A stretch of 64,000 nt of DNA from an uncultured Clostridium sp. (GCA_900542285.1 UQNF01000003.1:15585-79584), one strand, 5' to 3'. Positions 32,930 through 44,101 are shown, counted from the first letter of the stretch. Translations and numbers: made by a program. The notes: a model not told the origin generated them from the letters alone.

Positions 32930-35335
32930 ATGAAGAGAATTATCAGCGTCTTACTGTCCGTCATGCTTCTCATGACTATCGTTCCGGTAGCAGCAGAAAC
33001 AAAAACGGATGCAGACACTCGCCTTATCAATCAGGGCGTACTTGAGATAGATGATGACGGCAGCGACGGCTATTCGGGAGATTATGTCGTTATCTACAAC
33101 CCGAGCACCAGCGCATATTCGGATGTAAGCACCGGCAACATGAGCGGTCTTATCGAAACCGAGATTGGTACATCGCTGATCGGCAGAATGGATGCCGTCA
33201 AGAGCGATAGGCCGTATAGGATTGATATCGATTCAGAGCTTGCAGATAAAAATGAAAAAGCTCCCGAGTTCGCATCCGAAAAATCCATTTCCTTTGAAGT
33301 AGGCGATACGCATGTTTTCAGCATCAATTCAAGCTATTGTCCGCTTCCGAGTACAAGCGTTGAGTTCGAGGTGCTTGCCAAGGGTGAACATTGCTATATT
33401 TGGACCCCGACGTCTACCGCTTCGAATGTATACCCCCTGGACAGCATCGACTCGAGCTTCGGCCAGCTCTGCGCCGATGAGTTCGATTCAAAGTTTGACC
33501 TTATGCAATCCTCCTTCGGCAACCATTCAAACGGAAGTCAGGGCGATGGCAGGCTGAACATACTGTATTACAATATTGATGACGGTTGGACTCCCGGCAA
33601 TGGTTACGTGGCAGGCTTCTTCTCCTCCGCAGATCTGGCAAGCAATGGTATGCCCATTCTGAACATCGATACCTATCCCGGCGTTTATTATGTAACTACT
33701 GATGGCGAAGTCATAGCCGATGTTACGGATACTTACGGTACCATGGTGCACGAATACCAGCATCTCATCAACTATTCGGAGTGCGGCTACAGCGATACAT
33801 GGCTCAATGAATGCATGAGTGCCGCTGCTGAGGAGATCTGTTACCCAGGCAGCAGCATAGCTCCGAGGATCCAGTCTTGGATGAACTATAAGTTCAGCGT
33901 GAACGACGATTGGCTCAATCCTCCTGCAGAGCATGAGTACCAGTCCTCCTGGAGCCTCCACAACGGCTTCTCGATGTATGATTGGAGCAACTGGCTCGAT
34001 ATGTCCGATAGGCTTGCGCTTTATGCCCAGGTATCGCTTTATGCTCAGTACATTTACACCCAGTACGGCAACTCCACCTTCCGCGCGATCCTCGAGAGGC
34101 TTGCAAACGGTCAGGAATTCCAGTATGCGTTCCAGAATGTAACCGGGCAGAGCGCATCCGAATTCACAAGGAATTTCCGTATTGCGCTTACCGCAAATGA
34201 TCCCAACGCTGAGGATGGCATCTATGGCTTCAGTATGCAGGAGGGGTATGATCCTTCACAGTATCATGACGTAGAAAACCTGTATAACTGGCTTTCTCCC
34301 GTTGTGTTCACGGGCAGCTCATGCACAATCTCGGGCGGCGGTGCAATCACCATTAAGCCCGTTGACGGCGTTTACTATCCGCCTGCAGGCGCCGGAAGCT
34401 CGCTTGAGTATTATGGCATCACGCTCGATGCTATTCCGCCTGAACCCGTTCCGCTAACCAACATCAGCATCAACCCCACTTCGGTCAGCGTTTATACCGG
34501 AGCGACCGCAAGGCTGACCGCTGTAAGGGAACCCGAAAACGCCAATAATTATGAGCTGACATGGACTTCTTCCAACAGCAGCGTTGCAACGGTTAGCGGC
34601 AACAACAGGTTTGCAACCGTTACCGGAGTATCTCAGGGTACCGCCACTATCACCTGTACCGCACATGATCTTCTAAATGACCGAACCTATACTTCAACTG
34701 CAGCGGTTACCGTATTGGGCATGCCCACCGTTAACGATGCGCTTAATGTTGAAAACGGCACGCTGGAGTTTACCACAGGCTCAACATATCCTTGGGAAGT
34801 CGTATTCACCGCTGACGGCAGGGTTGCGGCTAAGAGCAGCAACGAGGGCGTTGAAAGCTCGAGCTCAACCATTACTCTAACGGTCAATATGAATGCCGGC
34901 GACACAATGAGCTTCGATTGGAGCGTAAGCAGTGAATCCAACTATGATAAGCTCTTCTTTAAGGTAAACAATGTCGAGCAGTCCAATATCTCCGGCTCCG
35001 TTGCGTGGACCACTGTGTCCTATACGGCGGCAACCACCGGCAGCTACACCTTTACATGGGTCTATAGCAAGGATGGCAGCGTCAATCGTGACGAGGACTG
35101 TGGCTATCTCGACAATGTCAACGTGCCCGGCTATACCGGCGGCAGCGAATATGAGCTTGGCGATGTAAATATGAACGGCAGCGTAGATATGAACGATGTT
35201 ACTCTCGTTATGCGCCATGCTATGGGCCTTATCAGCCTCAGCAGCGAACAGTGTCAGCTTGCGGATTACAACCGTGACGGCAATGTCAATACGGCCGATG
35301 CAGCCGCTATAATGCGTCGTGCAATGGGAATATAA
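32930..35335 (+). CDS. Secreted HExxH zinc metallopeptidase (hyicolysin/M30-like motif context) with Big_2 domain and C-terminal dockerin
   Basis: Signal peptide. TMVHEYQHLINY (HEYQH at 33749-33763). Big_2-like segment ISINPTSVSVYTGATARLTAV...SSNSSVATVS..G.VTGVSQGTATITCTA. Dockerin GDVNMNGSVDMNDV...ADYNRDGNVNTADA. Confidence 0.7.
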   Translation: MKRIISVLLSVMLLMTIVPVAAETKTDADTRLINQGVLEIDDDGSDGYSGDYVVIYNPSTSAYSDVSTGNMSGLIETEIGTSLIGRMDAVKSDRPYRIDIDSELADKNEKAPEFASEKSISFEVGDTHVFSINSSYCPLPSTSVEFEVLAKGEHCYIWTPTSTASNVYPLDSIDSSFGQLCADEFDSKFDLMQSSFGNHSNGSQGDGRLNILYYNIDDGWTPGNGYVAGFFSSADLASNGMPILNIDTYPGVYYVTTDGEVIADVTDTYGTMVHEYQHLINYSECGYSDTWLNECMSAAAEEICYPGSSIAPRIQSWMNYKFSVNDDWLNPPAEHEYQSSWSLHNGFSMYDWSNWLDMSDRLALYAQVSLYAQYIYTQYGNSTFRAILERLANGQEFQYAFQNVTGQSASEFTRNFRIALTANDPNAEDGIYGFSMQEGYDPSQYHDVENLYNWLSPVVFTGSSCTISGGGAITIKPVDGVYYPPAGAGSSLEYYGITLDAIPPEPVPLTNISINPTSVSVYTGATARLTAVREPENANNYELTWTSSNSSVATVSGNNRFATVTGVSQGTATITCTAHDLLNDRTYTSTAAVTVLGMPTVNDALNVENGTLEFTTGSTYPWEVVFTADGRVAAKSSNEGVESSSSTITLTVNMNAGDTMSFDWSVSSESNYDKLFFKVNNVEQSNISGSVAWTTVSYTAATTGSYTFTWVYSKDGSVNRDEDCGYLDNVNVPGYTGGSEYELGDVNMNGSVDMNDVTLVMRHAMGLISLSSEQCQLADYNRDGNVNTADAAAIMRRAMGI

Positions 35336-36367: not shown

Positions 36368-37099
36368 TTATTTCTCCACTGAACTGCGTTTTCTGCTCTT
36401 TTTTAGCAGCACTGCGCAGCCTATCACAGCGCCCAATGCGACGAGCACAACGCCGAAATCAAAGCGGCTTGCTTCGCCGGTAGGGGGAGCAGGAGGCGCG
36501 GAGGGTTCCTCTGAGGGCTCCTCTGAGGGCTCAGAGGAAGGTTCCTCGGAAGGCTCAGGAGAGGGTTCGGGAGTTGGGGTTGGAGGAATGAACTCTTCCT
36601 CAACGCTGAACACCCAGGTAATGGTTCCCACTGCGTTCTGGAACTCATCGCCCATTTCAAGAGAGGCATTGAGCGACAGATCGAGCGTGATCTCAGCGCC
36701 GGCGGCGAATTCGCCAAGCAGAACGCCGTAGCCATCATCATCCGCAAGGCCGCCCTGTTCGTTGGCCGGGGCATTGAATATCTCGGATTCGCCGTTATTG
36801 ACCGTTAGGGTGAAATACGAAAGGAATTCCGCATCCGCAGGGTCAACAGGCAGTGCCTTGAGATAGATGCCAACGGTCATATCGCTCGAATTGCGAATCA
36901 GGATCTGCTGCTCGAGAGAATCACCGGGCATAACACCCTTAAAATTGGAGAACAGGTCGGTCGATTCTGGGGTGAATACGAACTCGTTCTCTTCGCCGGT
37001 GAAATCCACGGTCGGAAGCCCATCGGCAAAGGCGTTGGCGCATGCAAGCGCAAGGCAGGCGACAAGCATCAGAGCAACAAGCTTAAATTTTTTTCTCAT
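36368..37099 (-). CDS. TasA/camelysin-like protein with Sec signal peptide, PEPS-rich linker and C-terminal APPTG + TM + basic-tail sorting signal
   Basis: Signal peptide ends ANAFA|DG. FKGVMPGDSLEQQILIRNSSD..VGIYLKA is TasA-like (compare VMPGDTIAKVVKIENTGD in the 40976-41527 product). The C-terminus reads PPAPPTGEASRFDFGVVLVALGAVIGCAVLLKKSRKRS. Confidence 0.65.
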   Translation of the reverse strand: MRKKFKLVALMLVACLALACANAFADGLPTVDFTGEENEFVFTPESTDLFSNFKGVMPGDSLEQQILIRNSSDMTVGIYLKALPVDPADAEFLSYFTLTVNNGESEIFNAPANEQGGLADDDGYGVLLGEFAAGAEITLDLSLNASLEMGDEFQNAVGTITWVFSVEEEFIPPTPTPEPSPEPSEEPSSEPSEEPSEEPSAPPAPPTGEASRFDFGVVLVALGAVIGCAVLLKKSRKRSSVEK

Positions 37100-37101
37100 A
37101 C

Positions 37102-37695
37102 TCAGTTACCTCCTTGTTCCGTCTTGGCGAGTGTGCCATCCGTACAAACTACTACCGGCCATACCGTTTCGACTGTCGAAGTCGGGAGCGACTGGACGGC
37201 GGAGGCGATGACCTGAAGCTCAAAATCGTACTCGTGCTCTCCATCTTTTACGGTACAGCTCTTGATAAGAATGGGAGTGTATTCGTCCGGCTTGATAAAG
37301 GTCTTGCAGTAGTAGAAACCATCAGTACCTTTGAACCAGAATTGATTGAAATCATCTCCCAAAGTGATGTTGCAATCATCGAGGTAAGCAGGCTTTGCGG
37401 CAATATTGCCCTCATCGTCCACCCATGCCGGAACCAGCGCAACGCGGATATACGCAGGAACGTTACCGGTGTTCTTTATTCTGACATTCTGCTTGGTTGT
37501 ACCATTGAACGTCTCATCAACCTGTATGGTAACTTCACCCGGAGTGAACTCGTTTACAACAGGTCCGGGAGTGCTGATAAGCCATGCCAAGCTGCCGGAT
37601 ACGGCCGCACAGGCGAGAATACAGACGCAGAATGCTATCAGAAACGGCTTGATGGACCGTTTGGGCTTGCGCGAATAGGTTTTAATCTGCCTCAT
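37102..37695 (-). CDS. SipW-class signal peptide protein, TasA-like paralog
   Basis: N-terminus ...SGSLAWLISTPGPVVNEFTPGEVTIQVDE, then VRIKNTGNVPAYIRVALV. Its start overlaps the stop of the vWA gene by 14 nt. Confidence 0.7.
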   Translation of the reverse strand: MRQIKTYSRKPKRSIKPFLIAFCVCILACAAVSGSLAWLISTPGPVVNEFTPGEVTIQVDETFNGTTKQNVRIKNTGNVPAYIRVALVPAWVDDEGNIAAKPAYLDDCNITLGDDFNQFWFKGTDGFYYCKTFIKPDEYTPILIKSCTVKDGEHEYDFELQVIASAVQSLPTSTVETVWPVVVCTDGTLAKTEQGGN

Positions 37696-40600
37696 CGGTC
37701 AAGTCCTCCTTTCCGGGGATGATAGCGGGCATTGGGCTGTATTCCGGACTGCCATTGGAGTCAAAGACGTTCGTTGCCACTGCTTCATCGCTGAGCCAGA
37801 ACTCGTTGTTAAGTCTGTTGGTCATTGTGACGATTGCTTCTTCGGGGCTTTCGGCGGGAAGCGTTGCTAAGACGCCATTTTGTTCTTCAACAAGCTCATA
37901 TCTCCAGGACCATTTGGTGTCCTCGCTGACGGTGTAGGTGCCGACAGGAAGGCCTACAATCGTACGGCTGCCTGCACCGACAATGAGAACATTGTAATCG
38001 GCTGGGCTAAGTATAGTGACCCCTTCTTTCGTAGTAAGTCCGGGGTAACTGACCGTGAAGATAAAGCTCTGTTCCGCATCCAGAAGCCGGCTGCCTTCTG
38101 CGATAGCCTTTTTAACCGTCAATGAGCAGGTGTTGACATGCAGTATGAACTTACACGGAACTGCACCTTCTGTACCGAAGTCACAGCCTGAGTGCTCACA
38201 TTCATCATGCACAAAGCTCACATGGCGATCAATATCGGTTTCGCCGATCTTTACCGATACATTGACCGGGATATCATCGGGAACGACGATATAGCCTTTC
38301 TTAATGGCATTCTCGGGCGTTGTGGCATAGTCAAGCTTAAGCGTGGGTGCGCTGCCCTCCATAGTCACCGAACTGTCCACAGTTTCGCCATGCTTCCAAG
38401 CAACGGGCTTATAGTTTGCCGTATAATCCGTATACTGTCCGCCATACCAGACCTCGCTGTCAGCGAAGGTGAGGACGGGCTTAAAGACATTGATTGTGCC
38501 TTCGTCGTAGCCTGACTGCTGAGTTGCAAGAGTCCCGGGTAGGAGATTACCATCTTTGTCATAACCGGTATCGGGCTTAGGCGATACCGTAACGGTGATG
38601 GAATATGTTGTGTCATCGGACAGTTCGTCAATGCCATCTGTGACAGCATGGCCGCTTGCATCCTTGATAACAACGCTTATGTTCACATACTCCGTTTGCC
38701 AGGTTTCAAGACCGTAGTTATTATCTGCCGCTGCCAGATTAAGTGAGACGCCTCCGACGGTGACGGTCGCATCTTCCTTGAGCTGCGCTGCGGTCAGGCC
38801 GTTCAGCAGATATACGTTCTTGTCGCTTGCGGTTACGGAAACTTCGCCAATCGGAACGTTTACCTCGGGACGCTCAAATGTCAACACCGGGTTAATGGCG
38901 CTACTATTCTCGTACACGCCGGCATTCGCATTGGTGTACACATTGTTGCCGCCAAGGAAGCCGGCTTTCGGGCTGACGGTGAATCTTATCACCAGCTTGT
39001 GGCCGTGGTAAGTAACTTCACCGTTATTGGTTACAGTTCCTACATAGTGTTCGGCAAAGTCAAAGTTGGTAACACTAACCTGACTGCCAAATATACTAGC
39101 CGTTGCGCCCATTGGATCATCTTGATTCATCGAATCAACGTTTCTTCTCCATGTGTATTTATTATCGCCGTTCTTACCGATGCAGGCATAGGTCTTAAGC
39201 GTAATATCTTCAGCCGTTGTGCCTTCCGGTAAAGTGAATGCAGGGGCGATGATGTCCCTGATGACGGTATGTTCGCTCAGGGTAGTGGAGGAACCACCGG
39301 TTTCTATCTGTTGGCTGATCTTCTCAAAGATATCGTTGAGAGCATCAGCGTCGCCTGCGGAAAGATAGTAGCTTGGGCTCTGCACATTACCGTTGTTGGA
39401 AGACAGATTCTGCATGAACCAGTTGGCTTTTTGGGTATCGTTTCCGCTTGAGCTACCTGCGCTTGTTGCATCTGCACCATCAAATATACCAACGGTATAA
39501 ACAGTTGCACCATAGGTGCTTTTTGCAGTGCTTCCTTGCGATATGGCAGCATTTCCTACGGTGCTGTTATATCTTCCGGTGCCAGGCAAGCCATCAGTGA
39601 AAACGATTACGACACGATTTCGCTTTGTCCCTTCTTCAATCTTGTTGACATTCAGAATACCGTTTGCCATCTCCATTCCCAGATCAGTGAAGGTTCCGCC
39701 ATATGCGTCCAAAGCTTTAATTGAGTTCGCAATATTGTTTTTCCCTATTGATGTGTTCATGCTTTGCAACGCATTGCTATACTGAGCAATTGCAGAGTTA
39801 CCATAAGTGTATTGTGTAGCACCGACAAATACTTCTGTGTTTTCATATTTGTCTTCATTGTATTCTGTTCCACTTGATGCAAAGCCAACAACTGCAATAC
39901 GGTGATTAACATCGTCTTCCGTTCCCATCTGACCATCCTTGCCCTTTGCTTTCACAGCTACCGCATTGGCAAATGCAGTTACAGCATTCTTCAATGCTTC
40001 AAGGCGAGTGGTTTCCACAGCAGTCCTCAGATATAGTTTATTATGGATTTCTGGAACAGTGTCCGGTCTATCTGATTCATATGAACCTTCTGACCATGAA
40101 TATGTATACTTAAAGTATCCTCTAATAAGGAAAACAGTCCAAATCCAATCCCTGCTTACTGATACCTGAGCATAACTACCATCATCAAGCTTATAAAAGA
40201 GATTATTTTGCTGATAGTAGTAGTCCGAGTTCGTCATATCGAAATAACTATCATATTTATAACTGCTGGTGAAGCTATCAGCCATACTTCCCGACTGGTC
40301 AAGCACCAGAACGATATCGGTGGGGATATACTCCGTAACCTCGGTGATGACCTTTTCACCGGTTGCATAGGCCTCCAGAGTGATGGTATAGGTACCGTCT
40401 CCGTTCGCAACGGCGTTTTTCGTTATCTCCATACCGCTGTCACCATTTCCGCTGCCCGTATCGTCGCCGGATACGGATGCGCCGCGAGTGGGCGAGCCGC
40501 AAACCGGGTCGAGCAGGGGAGCGACATTGGTGAAGTTGACAGTTGTATAAACATACTCAAGGTCGCCATCCTCTTCGGCGGCGGCGATAAGCTCGTTTAT

Positions 40601-40936
40601 ATGCTCTTCAAGCGCGGCATACTGCTCCTCGGTGAGAGAATCGATAAATGCGCTCAGCTGTTCGTCGGTGAGCCCTTCAAGCAGCGCGTGAGCCTCCGCA
40701 AAGGTCGCGGCTGCCATAAGGTCATTGTACAGTGCGGCATAATCGGGAGCTTCCACCGGGGTATCGGTATCGGACGGAGCGGGAGTTACTGACGGTGCAG
40801 AGGTTGGACTGCCCGAATTCGCTTGGCTGCCCATATTGGCGATGCCGCCTTCGTTCAGCGCGACAATGGCTGAGCCCATGGGCGTAATAAGGCATAAGCA
40901 GAGAAGCAGTGACAATAGCCCTTTAAGTATCTTCAT
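37682..40936 (-). CDS. Large secreted vWA (MIDAS) domain protein, adhesin-like, no recognisable cell-wall anchor
   Basis: 1084 aa. Signal peptide. DIVLVLDQSGSM (DxSxS at 40286-40300) and VVIVFTDGLPG. C-terminal beta-rich modules (e.g. GTYTVSEDTKWSWRYEL). Ends ...GKEDLTDEAD with no LPxTG or TM segment. Confidence 0.8.
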   Translation of the reverse strand: MKILKGLLSLLLCLCLITPMGSAIVALNEGGIANMGSQANSGSPTSAPSVTPAPSDTDTPVEAPDYAALYNDLMAAATFAEAHALLEGLTDEQLSAFIDSLTEEQYAALEEHINELIAAAEEDGDLEYVYTTVNFTNVAPLLDPVCGSPTRGASVSGDDTGSGNGDSGMEITKNAVANGDGTYTITLEAYATGEKVITEVTEYIPTDIVLVLDQSGSMADSFTSSYKYDSYFDMTNSDYYYQQNNLFYKLDDGSYAQVSVSRDWIWTVFLIRGYFKYTYSWSEGSYESDRPDTVPEIHNKLYLRTAVETTRLEALKNAVTAFANAVAVKAKGKDGQMGTEDDVNHRIAVVGFASSGTEYNEDKYENTEVFVGATQYTYGNSAIAQYSNALQSMNTSIGKNNIANSIKALDAYGGTFTDLGMEMANGILNVNKIEEGTKRNRVVIVFTDGLPGTGRYNSTVGNAAISQGSTAKSTYGATVYTVGIFDGADATSAGSSSGNDTQKANWFMQNLSSNNGNVQSPSYYLSAGDADALNDIFEKISQQIETGGSSTTLSEHTVIRDIIAPAFTLPEGTTAEDITLKTYACIGKNGDNKYTWRRNVDSMNQDDPMGATASIFGSQVSVTNFDFAEHYVGTVTNNGEVTYHGHKLVIRFTVSPKAGFLGGNNVYTNANAGVYENSSAINPVLTFERPEVNVPIGEVSVTASDKNVYLLNGLTAAQLKEDATVTVGGVSLNLAAADNNYGLETWQTEYVNISVVIKDASGHAVTDGIDELSDDTTYSITVTVSPKPDTGYDKDGNLLPGTLATQQSGYDEGTINVFKPVLTFADSEVWYGGQYTDYTANYKPVAWKHGETVDSSVTMEGSAPTLKLDYATTPENAIKKGYIVVPDDIPVNVSVKIGETDIDRHVSFVHDECEHSGCDFGTEGAVPCKFILHVNTCSLTVKKAIAEGSRLLDAEQSFIFTVSYPGLTTKEGVTILSPADYNVLIVGAGSRTIVGLPVGTYTVSEDTKWSWRYELVEEQNGVLATLPAESPEEAIVTMTNRLNNEFWLSDEAVATNVFDSNGSPEYSPMPAIIPGKEDLTDEAD

Positions 40937-40975: not shown

Positions 40976-41527
40976 TCACTCTGCGGGCCAGCCCTGCGCA
41001 GCCAGAACGGTTGCGCCGTTGTTTGCATACTGTACAGCCTCTGCGTCAACATCGATGCTCAGAACCGCATCCATATAGGAGTTGCCAAGGCTGATGTCGA
41101 ATGCTACGCTTGAGAACAGCTCGTTGGTGAAGGCACCGCCGTCAACGGGGCTGTTGTAGTAATAGTAGCCGTCCGAATAGGTCCAATCGGTGGTGTTGTA
41201 ATCAAGGGTGATGTCGTCGGTTGACAGCGCCTGCTGGTTGGCATCGGTGCAGCTCATGGTGACCTTTACACGGATCCATGCGGTATTGTCGCCGGTGTTC
41301 TCAATCTTAACGACCTTTGCGATGGTGTCGCCGGGCATAACACCGGTCTGATCCACAAAGGGATCGCCGTTTTCGTCGGTCTCATGGATAGCTATCCCGA
41401 GATTGCCGGCGGTTATCTGATTGTTTGCAGTATCCTGCGCGGTGAAGTAGGCGAGGGAGCCGAGCGCAAGGATGGATACGCAGGCGATAATTGCCGCAAG
41501 AATCGTAATCTTCTTCTTGATATTCAT
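40976..41527 (-). CDS. TasA/camelysin (peptidase M73-like) family protein with SipW-class signal peptide
   Basis: ...LGSLAYFTAQDTANNQITAGNLGIAIHE..., GVMPGDTIAKVVKIENTGDNTAWIRVKV. Confidence 0.8.
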   Translation of the reverse strand: MNIKKKITILAAIIACVSILALGSLAYFTAQDTANNQITAGNLGIAIHETDENGDPFVDQTGVMPGDTIAKVVKIENTGDNTAWIRVKVTMSCTDANQQALSTDDITLDYNTTDWTYSDGYYYYNSPVDGGAFTNELFSSVAFDISLGNSYMDAVLSIDVDAEAVQYANNGATVLAAQGWPAE

Positions 41528-41646: not shown

Positions 41647-42426
41647 TTAAGCCCAGGGATTTGCGGGAAGACCGGAAGCGGCGAATGCTGCTTCTGCACT
41701 ATCAAAACCGGCAGCCTGAACAGCCTGAACGAATACAGGAATCTCTACGCCTTCGGAGAGATCGTAGTTAATGACTTCAGGACCGTTGCCCCAATCTACT
41801 GTGTAGACGGGATTATTAGTGACTGAATCAATGTGCATATCAACAGTCTTGTCAAGGTAGAATCCGATGTATGCAGGAGTTGCGGTAACTACATCTTTTT
41901 CAAGAGCGGTAGTATAGGTGCGGCTATAGATTTTGTATTCAACGTCATTAATTACTACTTGGTTGGCAACAACTATCTCATCAGTCCACTGGCCTTCTGC
42001 GCAGGAATCTCCGTTAAAGTTCCAATGAAGGACATCATAGCGAGGTGCGTTGGGGGTCTGACCATTCTGAAGAGCGGTAGGAACAGCAACAAAGATGCGT
42101 ACATATGCATCAGATTCGCCGGTGTTCTTGATGGTCATGATTTTATCAACATAGTTCTCGGCAGTGGGAAGTGTAACACCACCAACAGTTTCCTGTTCGC
42201 CCTGTGCGGAACCAACGATAGGCATCAGAACCTTATTCTGTTCAAAGGGTACAAGTGCAGAGCTGTCTGCGTTTCTCTGCCGCTCGATAAGCTGAACCTT
42301 AACTCCGCCAACGGTGAAAACATTGGTTTCTTGATCGGTAGCGGTGAAATAAGCGATGGACATGCCGACGATGGTGACGGCAAGAACGGCAACGGCGAGG
42401 CCGATTGCGAGTAGTTTCTTCTTCAT
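41647..42426 (-). CDS. SipW-class signal peptide protein, TasA-like paralog
   Basis: ...GMSIAYFTATDQETNVFTVGGVKVQLIE..., IMTIKNTGESDAYVRIFVAV. Confidence 0.75.
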   Translation of the reverse strand: MKKKLLAIGLAVAVLAVTIVGMSIAYFTATDQETNVFTVGGVKVQLIERQRNADSSALVPFEQNKVLMPIVGSAQGEQETVGGVTLPTAENYVDKIMTIKNTGESDAYVRIFVAVPTALQNGQTPNAPRYDVLHWNFNGDSCAEGQWTDEIVVANQVVINDVEYKIYSRTYTTALEKDVVTATPAYIGFYLDKTVDMHIDSVTNNPVYTVDWGNGPEVINYDLSEGVEIPVFVQAVQAAGFDSAEAAFAASGLPANPWA

Positions 42427-42495: not shown

Positions 42496-43137
42496 TCACT
42501 GAGCATTATATGCTGCCCATGCTGCTTCCGGAGTTTGGAAGCCATCAGCCTGGATAGCGTAAGCATTGACGGTGATGGTCATGCCTTCAATCGTCCTAAG
42601 CTGTGCATTATTGATGGTACCGGGAACGGTGATGCTGTCGAACAGAGCATCGAGTGCTACATCTGCAGTAGGAGCAGCAACGGTTTCCTTATACCAGAAC
42701 TCATAGGTGCGGGTATTTGCTGAGGCATCCTCGGTGTTGCCCTTGCAGATCCAATTTGTACTATCGTAGCCTTTGAAAATACTAGTTAGATCTGCGCCAG
42801 TGGGAGCAAAGATAGCGTCAAGCTCACGAGATTTACTGAAGGTGACGGTCATCTTGATGTAGGAGCTTTCGCTGCCGCTCAAAACGGTGACTGTCGGATC
42901 CTTGGTGTAGGTGTGTCCGGGAATAAGCTTGTAGCTGTTAGCCTTGACACGATCAGCATCTTGCACTGGTGTACCATCAAGATTCACTTTAGCTTCGTCA
43001 AGCTTGATCTGTACGTTACCGACGGTGAAGGTGTTGACAACTCTGTCGGTGCTTGTCAGGTAGGCAAGCGTCATACCTACTGCAAAGGCGCAAACCAGCA
43101 CCATTGCAACTGACATGATTAGAAGTTTCTTCTTCAT
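42496..43137 (-). CDS. SipW-class signal peptide protein, TasA-like paralog
   Basis: MKKKLLIMSVAMVLVCAFAVGMTLAYLTSTDRVVNTFTVGNVQIKLDE. ATG 43137 follows GGAAAGGAAG; the track ORF to 43176 is an extension. Confidence 0.75.
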   Translation of the reverse strand: MKKKLLIMSVAMVLVCAFAVGMTLAYLTSTDRVVNTFTVGNVQIKLDEAKVNLDGTPVQDADRVKANSYKLIPGHTYTKDPTVTVLSGSESSYIKMTVTFSKSRELDAIFAPTGADLTSIFKGYDSTNWICKGNTEDASANTRTYEFWYKETVAAPTADVALDALFDSITVPGTINNAQLRTIEGMTITVNAYAIQADGFQTPEAAWAAYNAQ

Positions 43138-43188
43138 GTTCTTCCTTTCCGGGCGCGCTCTGCGGCGCCCATGCATTATATATGGGAT

Positions 43189-43797
43189 TTATATTAAGCC
43201 CGAAGGCTCTTCCCCGGAATTGGTTGATTCGGCGCCGTCCCTGACGCCGCGCTTTTTGCTCTTGTCCATGCCCTTGATAATATCGGGTACGAACAGAAGC
43301 AGGACGAGCACCACCGCGCCGCAAATCCCGACATACATGCCGGGCGGCGAGGAGAGATAATTGGAAACATATCCAAGATAGGGGATGGAGAACACGGGAC
43401 GGCCGAGAAGATTCTTAAAATAAACCGGCTTACCGTCCGGCGCATCGTTTGCATCGCCCTTGGTGTAGAAAAGCTCGTTCTCCGCATCGATATCGATAAC
43501 ACGGTGAGTGGCGATGACAAGGTCTTCGTTCAGAACGAAGGTTATCGGGTCGCCGACCCTTATCTGCTCCGCGGGAACACCCTTAACATATATGAGTGAA
43601 CCGACATGATATGTCGGCTCCATACTGCCGCTGAGTACGCAGAATGGGCGCAGGCCAAACAGCCTGACGCCGGCCAGAAGTACCGCAATCAGCACCACGA
43701 CACATGTTAGAATGGTTGTGAATACGTTCAGAACAATTTGAACAGGGCTCTTCTTTTCTTTATTCTTTTTTTTCTTTATGTCTGTATCTTGCTCCAT
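43189..43797 (-). CDS. sipW: SipW-type (ER/archaeal-type, S26B) signal peptidase I
   Basis: N-terminal TM helix, SGSMEP (catalytic Ser), ATHRVIDI (His), YTKGDAND, and a C-terminal TM helix. Confidence 0.88.
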   Translation of the reverse strand: MEQDTDIKKKKNKEKKSPVQIVLNVFTTILTCVVVLIAVLLAGVRLFGLRPFCVLSGSMEPTYHVGSLIYVKGVPAEQIRVGDPITFVLNEDLVIATHRVIDIDAENELFYTKGDANDAPDGKPVYFKNLLGRPVFSIPYLGYVSNYLSSPPGMYVGICGAVVLVLLLFVPDIIKGMDKSKKRGVRDGAESTNSGEEPSGLI

Positions 43798-43910
43798 GAT
43801 ACCAAGCTCCTTACTGCCTACTGGGTGATAAATCAGGCAAATATTGGCAGTATTACGATTAACACATGTATACTTGCGCGTCTATCCAATATATCTTACG
43901 CCGAGTTGTG

Positions 43911-43930
43911 CATAAAAGTACACTTTTATG
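43911..43930. repeat. Left hix-like recombination site (palindromic half-sites, core AC)
   Basis: CATAAAAGT-AC-ACTTTTATG: perfect 9-bp inverted half-sites around a non-palindromic AC core. Confidence 0.6.
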
Positions 43931-44056
43931 TATTGACGAACAATGGATAGGTGTAGTATAATTCCGCTGAAAACAGCCGGGAGACGAGTTAAAAACTGGA
44001 CTGTTTTCCACCGTTAAGGTGAATTTGCGTGTGCCGAAGTGTTGTGCATAAAAGTG
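43921..44056. other. Putative 136-bp invertible promoter segment (between the two core dinucleotides)
   Basis: Bounded by a perfect 13-bp inverted repeat: GTACACTTTTATG (43918-43930) and CATAAAAGTGTAC (44047-44059). It contains the only strong promoter in the sipW-recombinase intergenic region. Confidence 0.6.
43933..43962 (+). promoter_or_regulatory. Near-consensus sigma-70 promoter inside the invertible segment, currently pointing away from sipW
   Basis: TTGACG (43933-43938), 18-nt spacer, TATAAT (43957-43962) on the + strand. Confidence 0.65.
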
Positions 44057-44066
44057 TACCTTTTTG
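44047..44066. repeat. Right hix-like recombination site (core GT, the reverse complement of the left core)
   Basis: CATAAAAGT-GT-ACCTTTTTG. Its reverse complement, CAAAAAGGT-AC-ACTTTTATG, aligns with the left site. Confidence 0.6.
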
Positions 44067-44101
44067 CACAAAGCAAAAATATATTTTAATTTTTCACCGC
44101 C

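Follow-up and report, generated by a model that had tools for sequence, protein, structure and literature searches.

The subject of this analysis is a gene cluster in a stretch of 64,000 nucleotides (nt) from an uncultured Clostridium sp. (GCA_900542285.1 UQNF01000003.1:15585-79584), the whole of which is termed the window here. The cluster encodes a large protein with a von Willebrand factor type A (vWA) domain and, directly after it, a small protein related to the fibre subunits TasA and BsaA. It is proposed to be a phase-variable operon that builds a wall-anchored donor-strand fibre of the TasA/BsaA type, carrying at its tip a pilus-type adhesin that is attached by insertion of its C-terminal tail into the small subunit; taken as a whole, this proposal stands about an even chance of being right, and strand insertion, the accepting subunit, the isopeptide bond and the order of the subunits are the parts of it that we infer. 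The genes lie on one strand in the order sipW, three TasA/BsaA-like genes whose products have SipW-cognate leaders, and then the vWA, small and anchor genes, with the following features:

43189-43797, minus strand: SipW-type (archaeal-type) signal peptidase I (TIGR02228 2.8e-30, above cut-off; SipW model 2e-28)
42496-43176, minus strand: TasA-like subunit 1, with a SipW-type leader and donor strand AYLTSTDRVVNTFT (TIGR04088 1.7e-5; family alignment)
41647-42426, minus strand: TasA-like subunit 2, with donor strand AYFTATDQETNVFT (TIGR04088 2.3e-4; family alignment)
40976-41527, minus strand: TasA/BsaA-like subunit 3, with donor strand AYFTAQDTANNQIT (Peptidase_M73 35.8 bits, above cut-off; TIGR04090 2e-14)
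40442-40936, minus strand: vWA protein, amino acids (aa) 1-165, N-terminal module (AlphaFold2, AF2)
37811-40441, minus strand: vWA protein, aa 166-1042, adhesin body (AF2, mean predicted local distance difference test score (pLDDT) 78; Foldseek)
37763-37801, minus strand: vWA protein, C-terminal tail motif F1046-WLSDEAVATNV-F1058, candidate C-terminal donor strand (conservation, disorder, donor-strand similarity, co-evolution)
37682-37762, minus strand: lineage-specific extension DSNGSPEYSPMPAIIPGKEDLTDEAD and stop codon, end of the vWA gene
37102-37695, minus strand: small TasA/BsaA-like subunit, 197 aa (TIGR04090, hhalign, AF2)
36368-37099, minus strand: base/anchor protein, 243 aa (sorting signal; hhalign to the TasA-like 3 family)

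The vWA open reading frame (ORF; 40936-37682, minus strand) encodes 1084 aa, and the preliminary description of this DNA was right to ascribe to it an intact DxSxS metal ion-dependent adhesion site (MIDAS). DQSGS forms D213-S217 of the protein (40300-40286), the Pfam VWA domain is matched at 2.9e-8, and the MIDAS residues D213, S215, S217, T415 and D448 are invariant in family alignments of 22 and of 68 sequences. The Sec-type signal peptide and the beta-rich C-terminal modules of the same description were also recovered. The N-terminus, MKILKGLLSLLLCLCLITPMGSA followed by IV, is by eye an ordinary Sec leader, which AF2 models as a helix over residues 2-22, and it lacks to the eye the G-T-L-A-Y-F/L motif of SipW-type leaders; the C-terminal ~500 aa are modelled as beta-sandwich domains, the last strand of which is 1034-1042. 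In the AF2 model, which was built from the 68-sequence alignment, aa 1-165 comprise the Sec leader, a disordered PT-rich linker, a helical bundle (66-123) and a conserved disordered motif, TVNFTNVAPLLDPV, and are followed in aa 166-1042 by an Ig-like domain with the vWA/MIDAS domain inserted into it and then by the beta-sandwich stalk domains. A Foldseek search of the PDB with this model returned the sortase-pilus tip adhesins PitA (1e-25), SpaC (3e-24), RrgA (7e-13) and GBS104 (7e-11), and the protein is therefore taken to be a pilus-tip-type adhesin that is missing their LPXTG signal; on the strength of the model, its body is the same kind of molecule as theirs. Indeed the vWA/MIDAS head on an Ig-like stalk that marks sortase-dependent tip adhesins is present, whilst the C-terminal LPXTG signal is absent from the window protein and from the homologues in sipW contexts that were examined. 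The acidic end reported earlier (...GKEDLTDEAD) was confirmed, and inspection of the sequence together with a Pfam scan found no LPXTG, hydrophobic segment or wall-binding domain in the window protein.

Directly behind the last domain, all 120 homologues listed and nearly all homologues in the related loci carry a short tail motif, [YFK]-W-L-[NS]-x5-6-[V]-x-N-x-[FWY]. In the window its pattern is W1047-L-x7-N1056-x-F1058, with W1047, L1048 and N1056 invariant or nearly so. Despite this conservation, residues 1048-1084 are unstructured in the AF2 monomer (pLDDT ~30-38, below 50), and the donor strand of BsaA is likewise unstructured in monomer models (PMC11580942). Most homologues stop 2-6 residues past the tail motif, and the 26 residues that follow it here, DSNGSPEYSPMPAIIPGKEDLTDEAD, are peculiar to the window lineage. 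They encode the ribosome-binding site AAGGAGG (GKED = GGA AAG GAG GAC) and the ATG of the small gene, and because the extension is lineage-specific and serves as the Shine-Dalgarno sequence and start codon of the next gene, the acidic end that the preliminary description had picked out as a feature is without functional meaning in itself.

The tail resembles the start of the proteins that SipW processes. After predicted cleavage behind G-T-L-A, the SipW substrates of operons of this type begin with [YWF]-[LF]-T-x4-6-V-x-N-x-F-T, a segment that includes V-x-N-x-F, as in the BsaA donor strand (PMC11580942). When the donor profile of the small-protein family was moved without gaps over the vWA family profile, the best of 1045 positions was the tail motif, with a score of 10.5 against 5.2 for the runner-up (z 4.4). 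In the reverse scan, the tail motif landed on the donor segment of the small family (11.3, z 5.5), with a weaker in-register match in the TasA-like 1 family and nothing in the sipW, sortase, anchor and N-terminal module families. Shuffling the columns of the tail motif reached the observed score in 20 of 20,000 trials. A hidden Markov model (HMM) of TasA donor strands gave 8.0 bits at aa 1047-1058 of the window protein, compared with 4.8 at most among 1416 control ORFs totalling 279 kaa; an HMM made from the N-termini of the small proteins failed to single out the vWA tail, which the ungapped profile-profile scans did. As far as likeness of sequence can tell, the tail mimics the donor strand that SipW would expose on the small protein.

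The tail was found to take the place of a sorting signal. Three vWA homologues outside sipW operons (L060, L073 and L074) end in LPNSG or LPSTG, a transmembrane segment and a basic tail, with no W-L motif. With the last 149 residues of the vWA protein as query, 1266 relatives were retrieved from 1.8 billion representative proteins; among the best 148 of these, ~84-90% end in a W-L...N-x-aromatic tail and 3 have sorting signals. The DUF5979-type domain and the tail also occur together where there is no vWA domain, on proteins 348 to 2337 aa long, DUF7601, Flg_new and ricin-lectin passengers among them, and therefore behave as a portable C-terminal attachment module. An orphan vWA homologue with a W-L...N-x-W tail was also seen (L015, 9809-12820), with no sipW, small or anchor gene within 10 kb; to judge by its surroundings, its partners, if any, would be encoded elsewhere. 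The WxL domain, which is C-terminal and ~160 aa long, contains the W-x-L motif twice and binds to WxLIP or peptidoglycan. An analogy with it was considered and rejected: the tail is 13 aa long, has W-L rather than W-x-L, and no WxL domain was matched in Pfam; WxLIP structures appeared solely as weak Foldseek matches to the small protein (E 0.08-0.24).

The small protein consists of a SipW-type leader (aa 1-37), a donor strand (W38-T51; 37543-37584) and a beta-sandwich body (~aa 52-191; ~37123-37542); in its AF2 model the pLDDT is above 90 from about residue 50 and the leader and donor segment are disordered. Its motif GSLA followed by WLISTPGPVVNEFTPG aligns with the SipW motifs of its neighbours, and sipW itself is in the operon, which places the leader in the SipW type; the TIGR04088 model fell short of E 0.01 on this protein. 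The claim that the next product is a SipW-motif paralogue with a divergent motif thus held, and the divergent motif (A-W-L-x...N-x-F-T-P) proved to be the signature of the entire small family. TIGR04090 is matched at 1.6e-9, with 37.9 bits against a curated cut-off of 60, and likewise weakly by 31 of the 32 small-family members; there is no Pfam match, and a sequence-profile search of the PDB with the small protein gave nothing relevant. Comparison by hhalign aligned the small family with the TasA-like 3 family, whose window member passes Pfam Peptidase_M73, at 99.85% (E 1.4e-30), and with the TasA-like 1 family at 99.5%; the small protein is therefore homologous to TasA/BsaA, outside the curated thresholds. 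Within the small family there is no variation at N48 (in the donor strand), E61 and K68, nor is there any at N36, E49 and K71 in the TasA-like 3 family. The N-E-K set of the small family resembles N35/E56/K74 of BsaA, a likeness read from sequence alone and with different spacing.

More than 7000 homologues of the vWA protein were found in the protein collection. A scan of species-representative genomes, in which ORFs were classified with phmmer, gave a set of 80 loci, mostly from Oscillospiraceae, Christensenellales, Lachnospiraceae, Peptococcaceae and Erysipelotrichaceae, with two from Coriobacteriia. Their recurring order is sipW, two to five TasA-like genes, often a separate gene for the N-terminal module, then the vWA, small and anchor genes, with a sortase gene in about half. 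A gene of the small family stands directly after the vWA gene in 68 of the 73 loci with enough downstream sequence, so that the pair is conserved as neighbours, a point on which the preliminary description had wanted a check, and the adjacency is kept in rearranged operons (L013, L047, L068 and L069). In the window the two genes overlap by 14 nt, in agreement with the overlap (37682-37695) given before: the vWA TAA is at 37684-37682, the small-gene ATG is at 37695, and AGGAGG stands 9 nt upstream of this ATG, inside the vWA reading frame. This overlap had been read as translational coupling that fixes the stoichiometry of the two products. That part of the claim was not supported, and the overlap was rejected as a conserved coupling device, since the spacing is usually 13-20 nt, like the other gene gaps in the operon, and 6 of 62 pairs overlap. 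A minimal locus in a metagenome-assembled genome of Faecalibacterium sp. (L059, 9491-12834) comprises sipW, vWA, small and anchor genes, with no separate TasA-like genes; at the start of its vWA ORF stand a leader of the SipW type and a TasA1-like domain that is truncated, and a frameshift splits the gene. This locus may be a deletion or fusion derivative, and the vWA-TasA fusion, found in this one locus and frameshifted, was not used as Rosetta-stone evidence.

Which subunit might accept the tail was addressed through co-evolution, by comparing distance matrices (Spearman) for the 15-residue vWA tail and other parts of the operon over 55 loci. The tail correlates with the body of the small protein at rho 0.73 (partial 0.67 when controlled for SipW). 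Its values with other parts are 0.38 for the vWA head, 0.34 for the TasA-like 3 body and 0.30 each for the TasA-like 1 body and the anchor domain, and with the small protein's own donor segment the value is 0.11, though this segment sits between the tail and the small body. In the largest subgroup (38 loci), tail and small body reach 0.79 (Mantel p < 0.0005), compared with 0.08 for tail and anchor. The small protein had been described as an adaptor that links the adhesin to the fibre; given the adjacency in 68 of 73 loci and the co-evolution of tail and small body, the two proteins probably interact and the linking role is plausible, even though the stoichiometry supposed to follow from the overlap was not supported.

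The last gene of the operon would supply a link to the wall. Its product has a Sec leader, an N-terminally truncated TasA-like domain, a PE/PS-rich linker and a putative sorting signal, made up of APPTGE (APPTG 36476-36490), an 18-aa hydrophobic segment (36404-36457) and KKSRKRSSVEK. The TasA-like domain is matched to the TasA-like 3 family by hhalign (98%, E 2.3e-13) over the part past the donor strand and first strands alone. The signal belongs to an xPxTG[DE] class common to ~30 homologues, and APPTG resembles the (S/P)PXTG motif recognised by the C. difficile sortase SrtB (PMC4155245). Of 64 complete anchor homologues, 59 have a sorting signal, 29 with a sortase gene within 1.5 kb downstream; those of the LIQTG type always have a sortase gene after them, and those of the xPxTG[DE] type, to which the window protein belongs, usually have none. 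No sortase gene was found in the window by tblastn with two sortases from related loci, and the ORF after the anchor gene encodes an unrelated Cys-rich peptide of 92 aa. The preliminary description held that the adhesin 'lacks any anchor' and that its retention was unexplained. This view has to be revised, for the last gene of the operon, which that description left unmentioned, carries an xPxTG signal and the vWA protein has a donor-like tail. Five anchor homologues of ~440 aa (L023, L029, L071, L076 and L079) have at their end another conserved domain (...WTEL.P.RDW..LE...) and no sorting signal, a pattern in their sequences that suggests another way of fixing the base.

Upstream of the entire operon lies a second group of features:

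43906-44071: invertible promoter switch, with 25-nt inverted repeats flanking a 116-nt segment
44102-44707, minus strand: serine recombinase (resolvase/invertase family), beside the switch (Pfam Resolvase 3.9e-29)

The arms of the inverted repeat are at 43906-43930 and 44047-44071. Between them stands TTGACG-18-TATAAT (plus strand, 43933-43962), a near-consensus promoter and the best sigma70-like match of the region, which in the window is directed away from sipW and the operon (OFF). In the metagenome contigs L088 and L089, the 166-bp element is inverted relative to the same flanks (ON). The recombinase matches the NCBIfam Mpi-family master DNA invertase model at 1.9e-11, below the curated cut-off, and is the presumed invertase of the switch.

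From these parts the following assembly can be put forward. The vWA adhesin would be exported by Sec, and its tail would complement the small subunit as a donor strand, entering the open acceptor groove there in the form of a beta-strand; an isopeptide bond from tail N1056 to small-subunit K68, with E61 as catalyst, may lock the two together, in parallel to N35-K74/E56 of BsaA. The donor strand of the small subunit itself would continue the chain, into further copies of the small protein or into TasA-like subunits 1-3, and the chain would end at the anchor protein, the TasA-like domain of which has no donor strand and the APPTG of which a housekeeping sortase would join to peptidoglycan. In such an assembly the vWA protein would be donor-only, the small and TasA-like proteins both donor and acceptor, and the anchor acceptor-like with no donor region; from this distribution of roles follows a chain running from the vWA tail through the small subunit and small or TasA-like subunits to the base. 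The proposed chain fits the published model of BsaA, in which the fibre grows from the base and the first, distal subunit has an open groove (PMC11580942), and it fits the precedent of TapA in Bacillus subtilis (PMC10151520).

Several observations weigh against this assembly. The tail motif is short, the p-value of its similarity to donor strands is ~0.001, and in many homologues the TasA donor HMM is weaker and does not have the tail as its best match. Foldseek with the small-protein model gives no TasA structure; its best matches are the chaperone-usher donor-strand pilins SafA and Csu, and these are weak (E ~0.01-0.1). The co-evolution signal is confounded by physical linkage, the gene ends being 15 nt apart, although the anchor gene is equally adjacent and has no signal like that of the tail, which runs counter to linkage as the cause. 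At the other end of the chain, the anchor has Gln where the TasA-like 3 family has its invariant Lys and is missing the Glu-bearing strand, and for this reason the way in which the chain would end is in doubt; the want of a sortase gene in the 64 kb counts on the same side. Furthermore, BsaC, the vWA protein of C. perfringens, has been detected as a soluble protein in the culture supernatant, in a strain without the LPXTG-bearing BsaB (PMC11580942). Finally, a groove on a third protein into which both fit would account equally well for the likeness of the tail to the donor strand of the small protein.

The result for BsaC invites a reading in which the vWA protein, once released, is soluble and acts in the matrix or in adhesion, the tail has another use, for example as a signal for wall crossing or folding, and any binding to the fibre is reversible, for instance through the MIDAS. 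We regard this as unlikely, although it deserves a hearing: BsaC was found in the secretome, its release depends on the type IV pilin PilA3 (PMC11580942), and the vWA protein itself has no covalent anchor motif. Against it speak the specific likeness of the tail to donor strands, the fact that the tail stands in the place of the LPXTG of homologues, and its co-evolution with the small subunit. The LPXTG-bearing BsaB had, moreover, been lost from the C. perfringens strain in question (PMC11580942), and no type IV pilus genes were noticed by the operon, though no search aimed at them was made.

Less probable again is that the tail docks on the sortase-anchored base or on TasA-like subunits 1-3, the small protein being a competing cap or initiator in the manner of TapA. 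Since the tail is most like the donor strand of the small protein, both might target one third-party groove, and the base protein, acceptor-like and with no donor region, would be a candidate to offer it. The tail, however, co-varies with the small body (0.73-0.79) and not comparably with the anchor (0.30 over all loci, 0.08 in the subgroup) or with TasA-like 1 and 3 (0.30-0.34), and the adjacency of the vWA and small genes outlives rearrangements that move the anchor gene away (L013, L068 and L069). Finally, that W-L...N-x-F is the last element of the DUF5979-type domain, packing back on it with no intermolecular role and left unplaced by AF2, draws on the correlation of tail distances with the last domain (rho 0.65-0.80) and on the low confidence that AF2 often has near chain ends, but is improbable, as the confident strand 1034-1042 already closes the domain, the tail stays at pLDDT ~30-38 in spite of 68 aligned sequences, the LPXTG-type homologues have no W-L segment, and the directional similarity to donor strands would be left unexplained.

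Two further sets of observations concern variation in the vWA protein. Among alleles of the same species group (P0001-P0071), aa 1-100 (in many, 1-150) and the last ~35 aa are 85-100% identical, whereas over ~aa 150-650, which includes the head, identity drops to 8-45% (0% where the insert is absent); the pattern of these sequences is what allelic replacement of the head, with conserved ends on either side, would look like. In the window the N-terminal module is fused to the rest of the vWA protein, but 34 related loci (e.g. L001, 7288-7989) encode it as a secreted protein by itself, and in these separate proteins SEIxxPTVN[FY]TNVAPFGxPVxG always stands at the C-terminal end. The corresponding peptide in the window, TVNFTNVAPLLDPV, is disordered in the AF2 model and may be a second C-terminal docking peptide. 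Elsewhere in the window, the product of 32930-35335 (plus strand) is a secreted protein of 801 aa in which an HExxH metalloprotease-like region and a Big_2 domain are accompanied by a type I dockerin at the C-terminus, a domain composition that suggests a cohesin-dockerin (cellulosome-like) system in the organism.

The nearest system described so far is that of C. perfringens, the bsa operon, with the genes sipW-bsaA-bsaB-bsaC, to which the window locus is related. BsaA polymerises by donor-strand exchange, with an N35-K74 isopeptide lock for which E56 is catalytic; in most strains there is a BsaB with LPXTG and, adjacent to it, a sortase, and what the vWA protein BsaC does is stated to be unknown (PMC11580942). 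The two operons share SipW, several TasA-like paralogues, the VxNxF donor strand, an N-E-K set that is alike in sequence and a vWA protein, and in most strains there is also an LPXTG-bearing TasA-like protein together with a sortase. They differ in that the vWA protein has 1084 aa here (BsaC is ~70 kDa) and in that its gene stands before, not after, two TasA-like genes (small and anchor); neither a C-terminal donor-like tail nor a tip role is part of the published description of BsaC. In the tapA-sipW-tasA system of B. subtilis, TapA, whose own fold is complete, supplies TasA with a TasA-like strand and sits at the start of the fibre (Roske 2023, PMC10151520). The proposal made here resembles this in having an accessory protein with its own complete fold that would donate a mimic of the N-terminal donor strand of the subunit, but TapA donates its N-terminus, whereas here it would be the C-terminus of a large adhesin, and B. 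subtilis has no vWA domain or sortase anchor, and its TasA has no isopeptide triad.

With PitA (7w6b), SpaC (6m48), RrgA (2ww8) and GBS104 (3txa), the vWA protein shares a vWA/MIDAS domain inserted in an Ig-like domain and a stalk, and would share a distal position and attachment through the C-terminus. In those adhesins the C-terminus is the attachment point to the pilus shaft. Unlike them, the system described here has no LPXTG on the adhesin, no pilin-specific sortase and no partner with a pilin-motif lysine, strand insertion being proposed instead. Ordered heteropolymers formed by donor-strand exchange, as proposed here, are otherwise found in the chaperone-usher pili (Fim/Pap) and in archaeal threads and bundling pili; archaeal threads and BsaA add intermolecular isopeptide locks. 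In the chaperone-usher pili, however, the groove belongs to the adhesin and the strand comes from the next subunit, whereas here the adhesin would be donor-only, there is no usher or chaperone, and the base would be anchored by a sortase in a Gram-positive envelope. The attachment signal proposed here is apparently undescribed.

More broadly, the W-L-x(6-9)-N-x-aromatic tail behind a DUF5979-type domain could be a sorting signal that is widespread and needs no sortase. As a donor strand at the C-terminus it would join passengers of various kinds (vWA adhesins, DUF7601, Flg_new and lectin proteins) to TasA-like subunits processed by SipW, and an Asn-Lys isopeptide bond might make the link covalent. 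It would then belong to a hybrid Gram-positive pilus with a donor-strand shaft, a pilus-type tip and a sortase-anchored base, common in gut Clostridia and switched by DNA inversion; we lean slightly towards doubt on this wider generalization. Two routes to a Gram-positive fibre are established, the polymerisation of LPXTG pilins by sortases and donor-strand exchange between SipW-processed TasA-like subunits. Both appear to be combined in the window locus and in its relatives, which number thousands in gut Clostridia, with a tip adhesin of the sortase-pilus type, a donor-strand shaft and a sortase-anchored base, and the hypervariable adhesin heads together with the invertible promoter suggest strong selection by host, phage or the immune system. 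If the tail is indeed a donor strand, it would provide a new, recognisable sorting signal by which surface proteins could be annotated in uncultured anaerobes of the gut, a pairing of short peptide and domain with possible use as a protein ligation tag, and a testable role for the vWA proteins of bsa-type operons.

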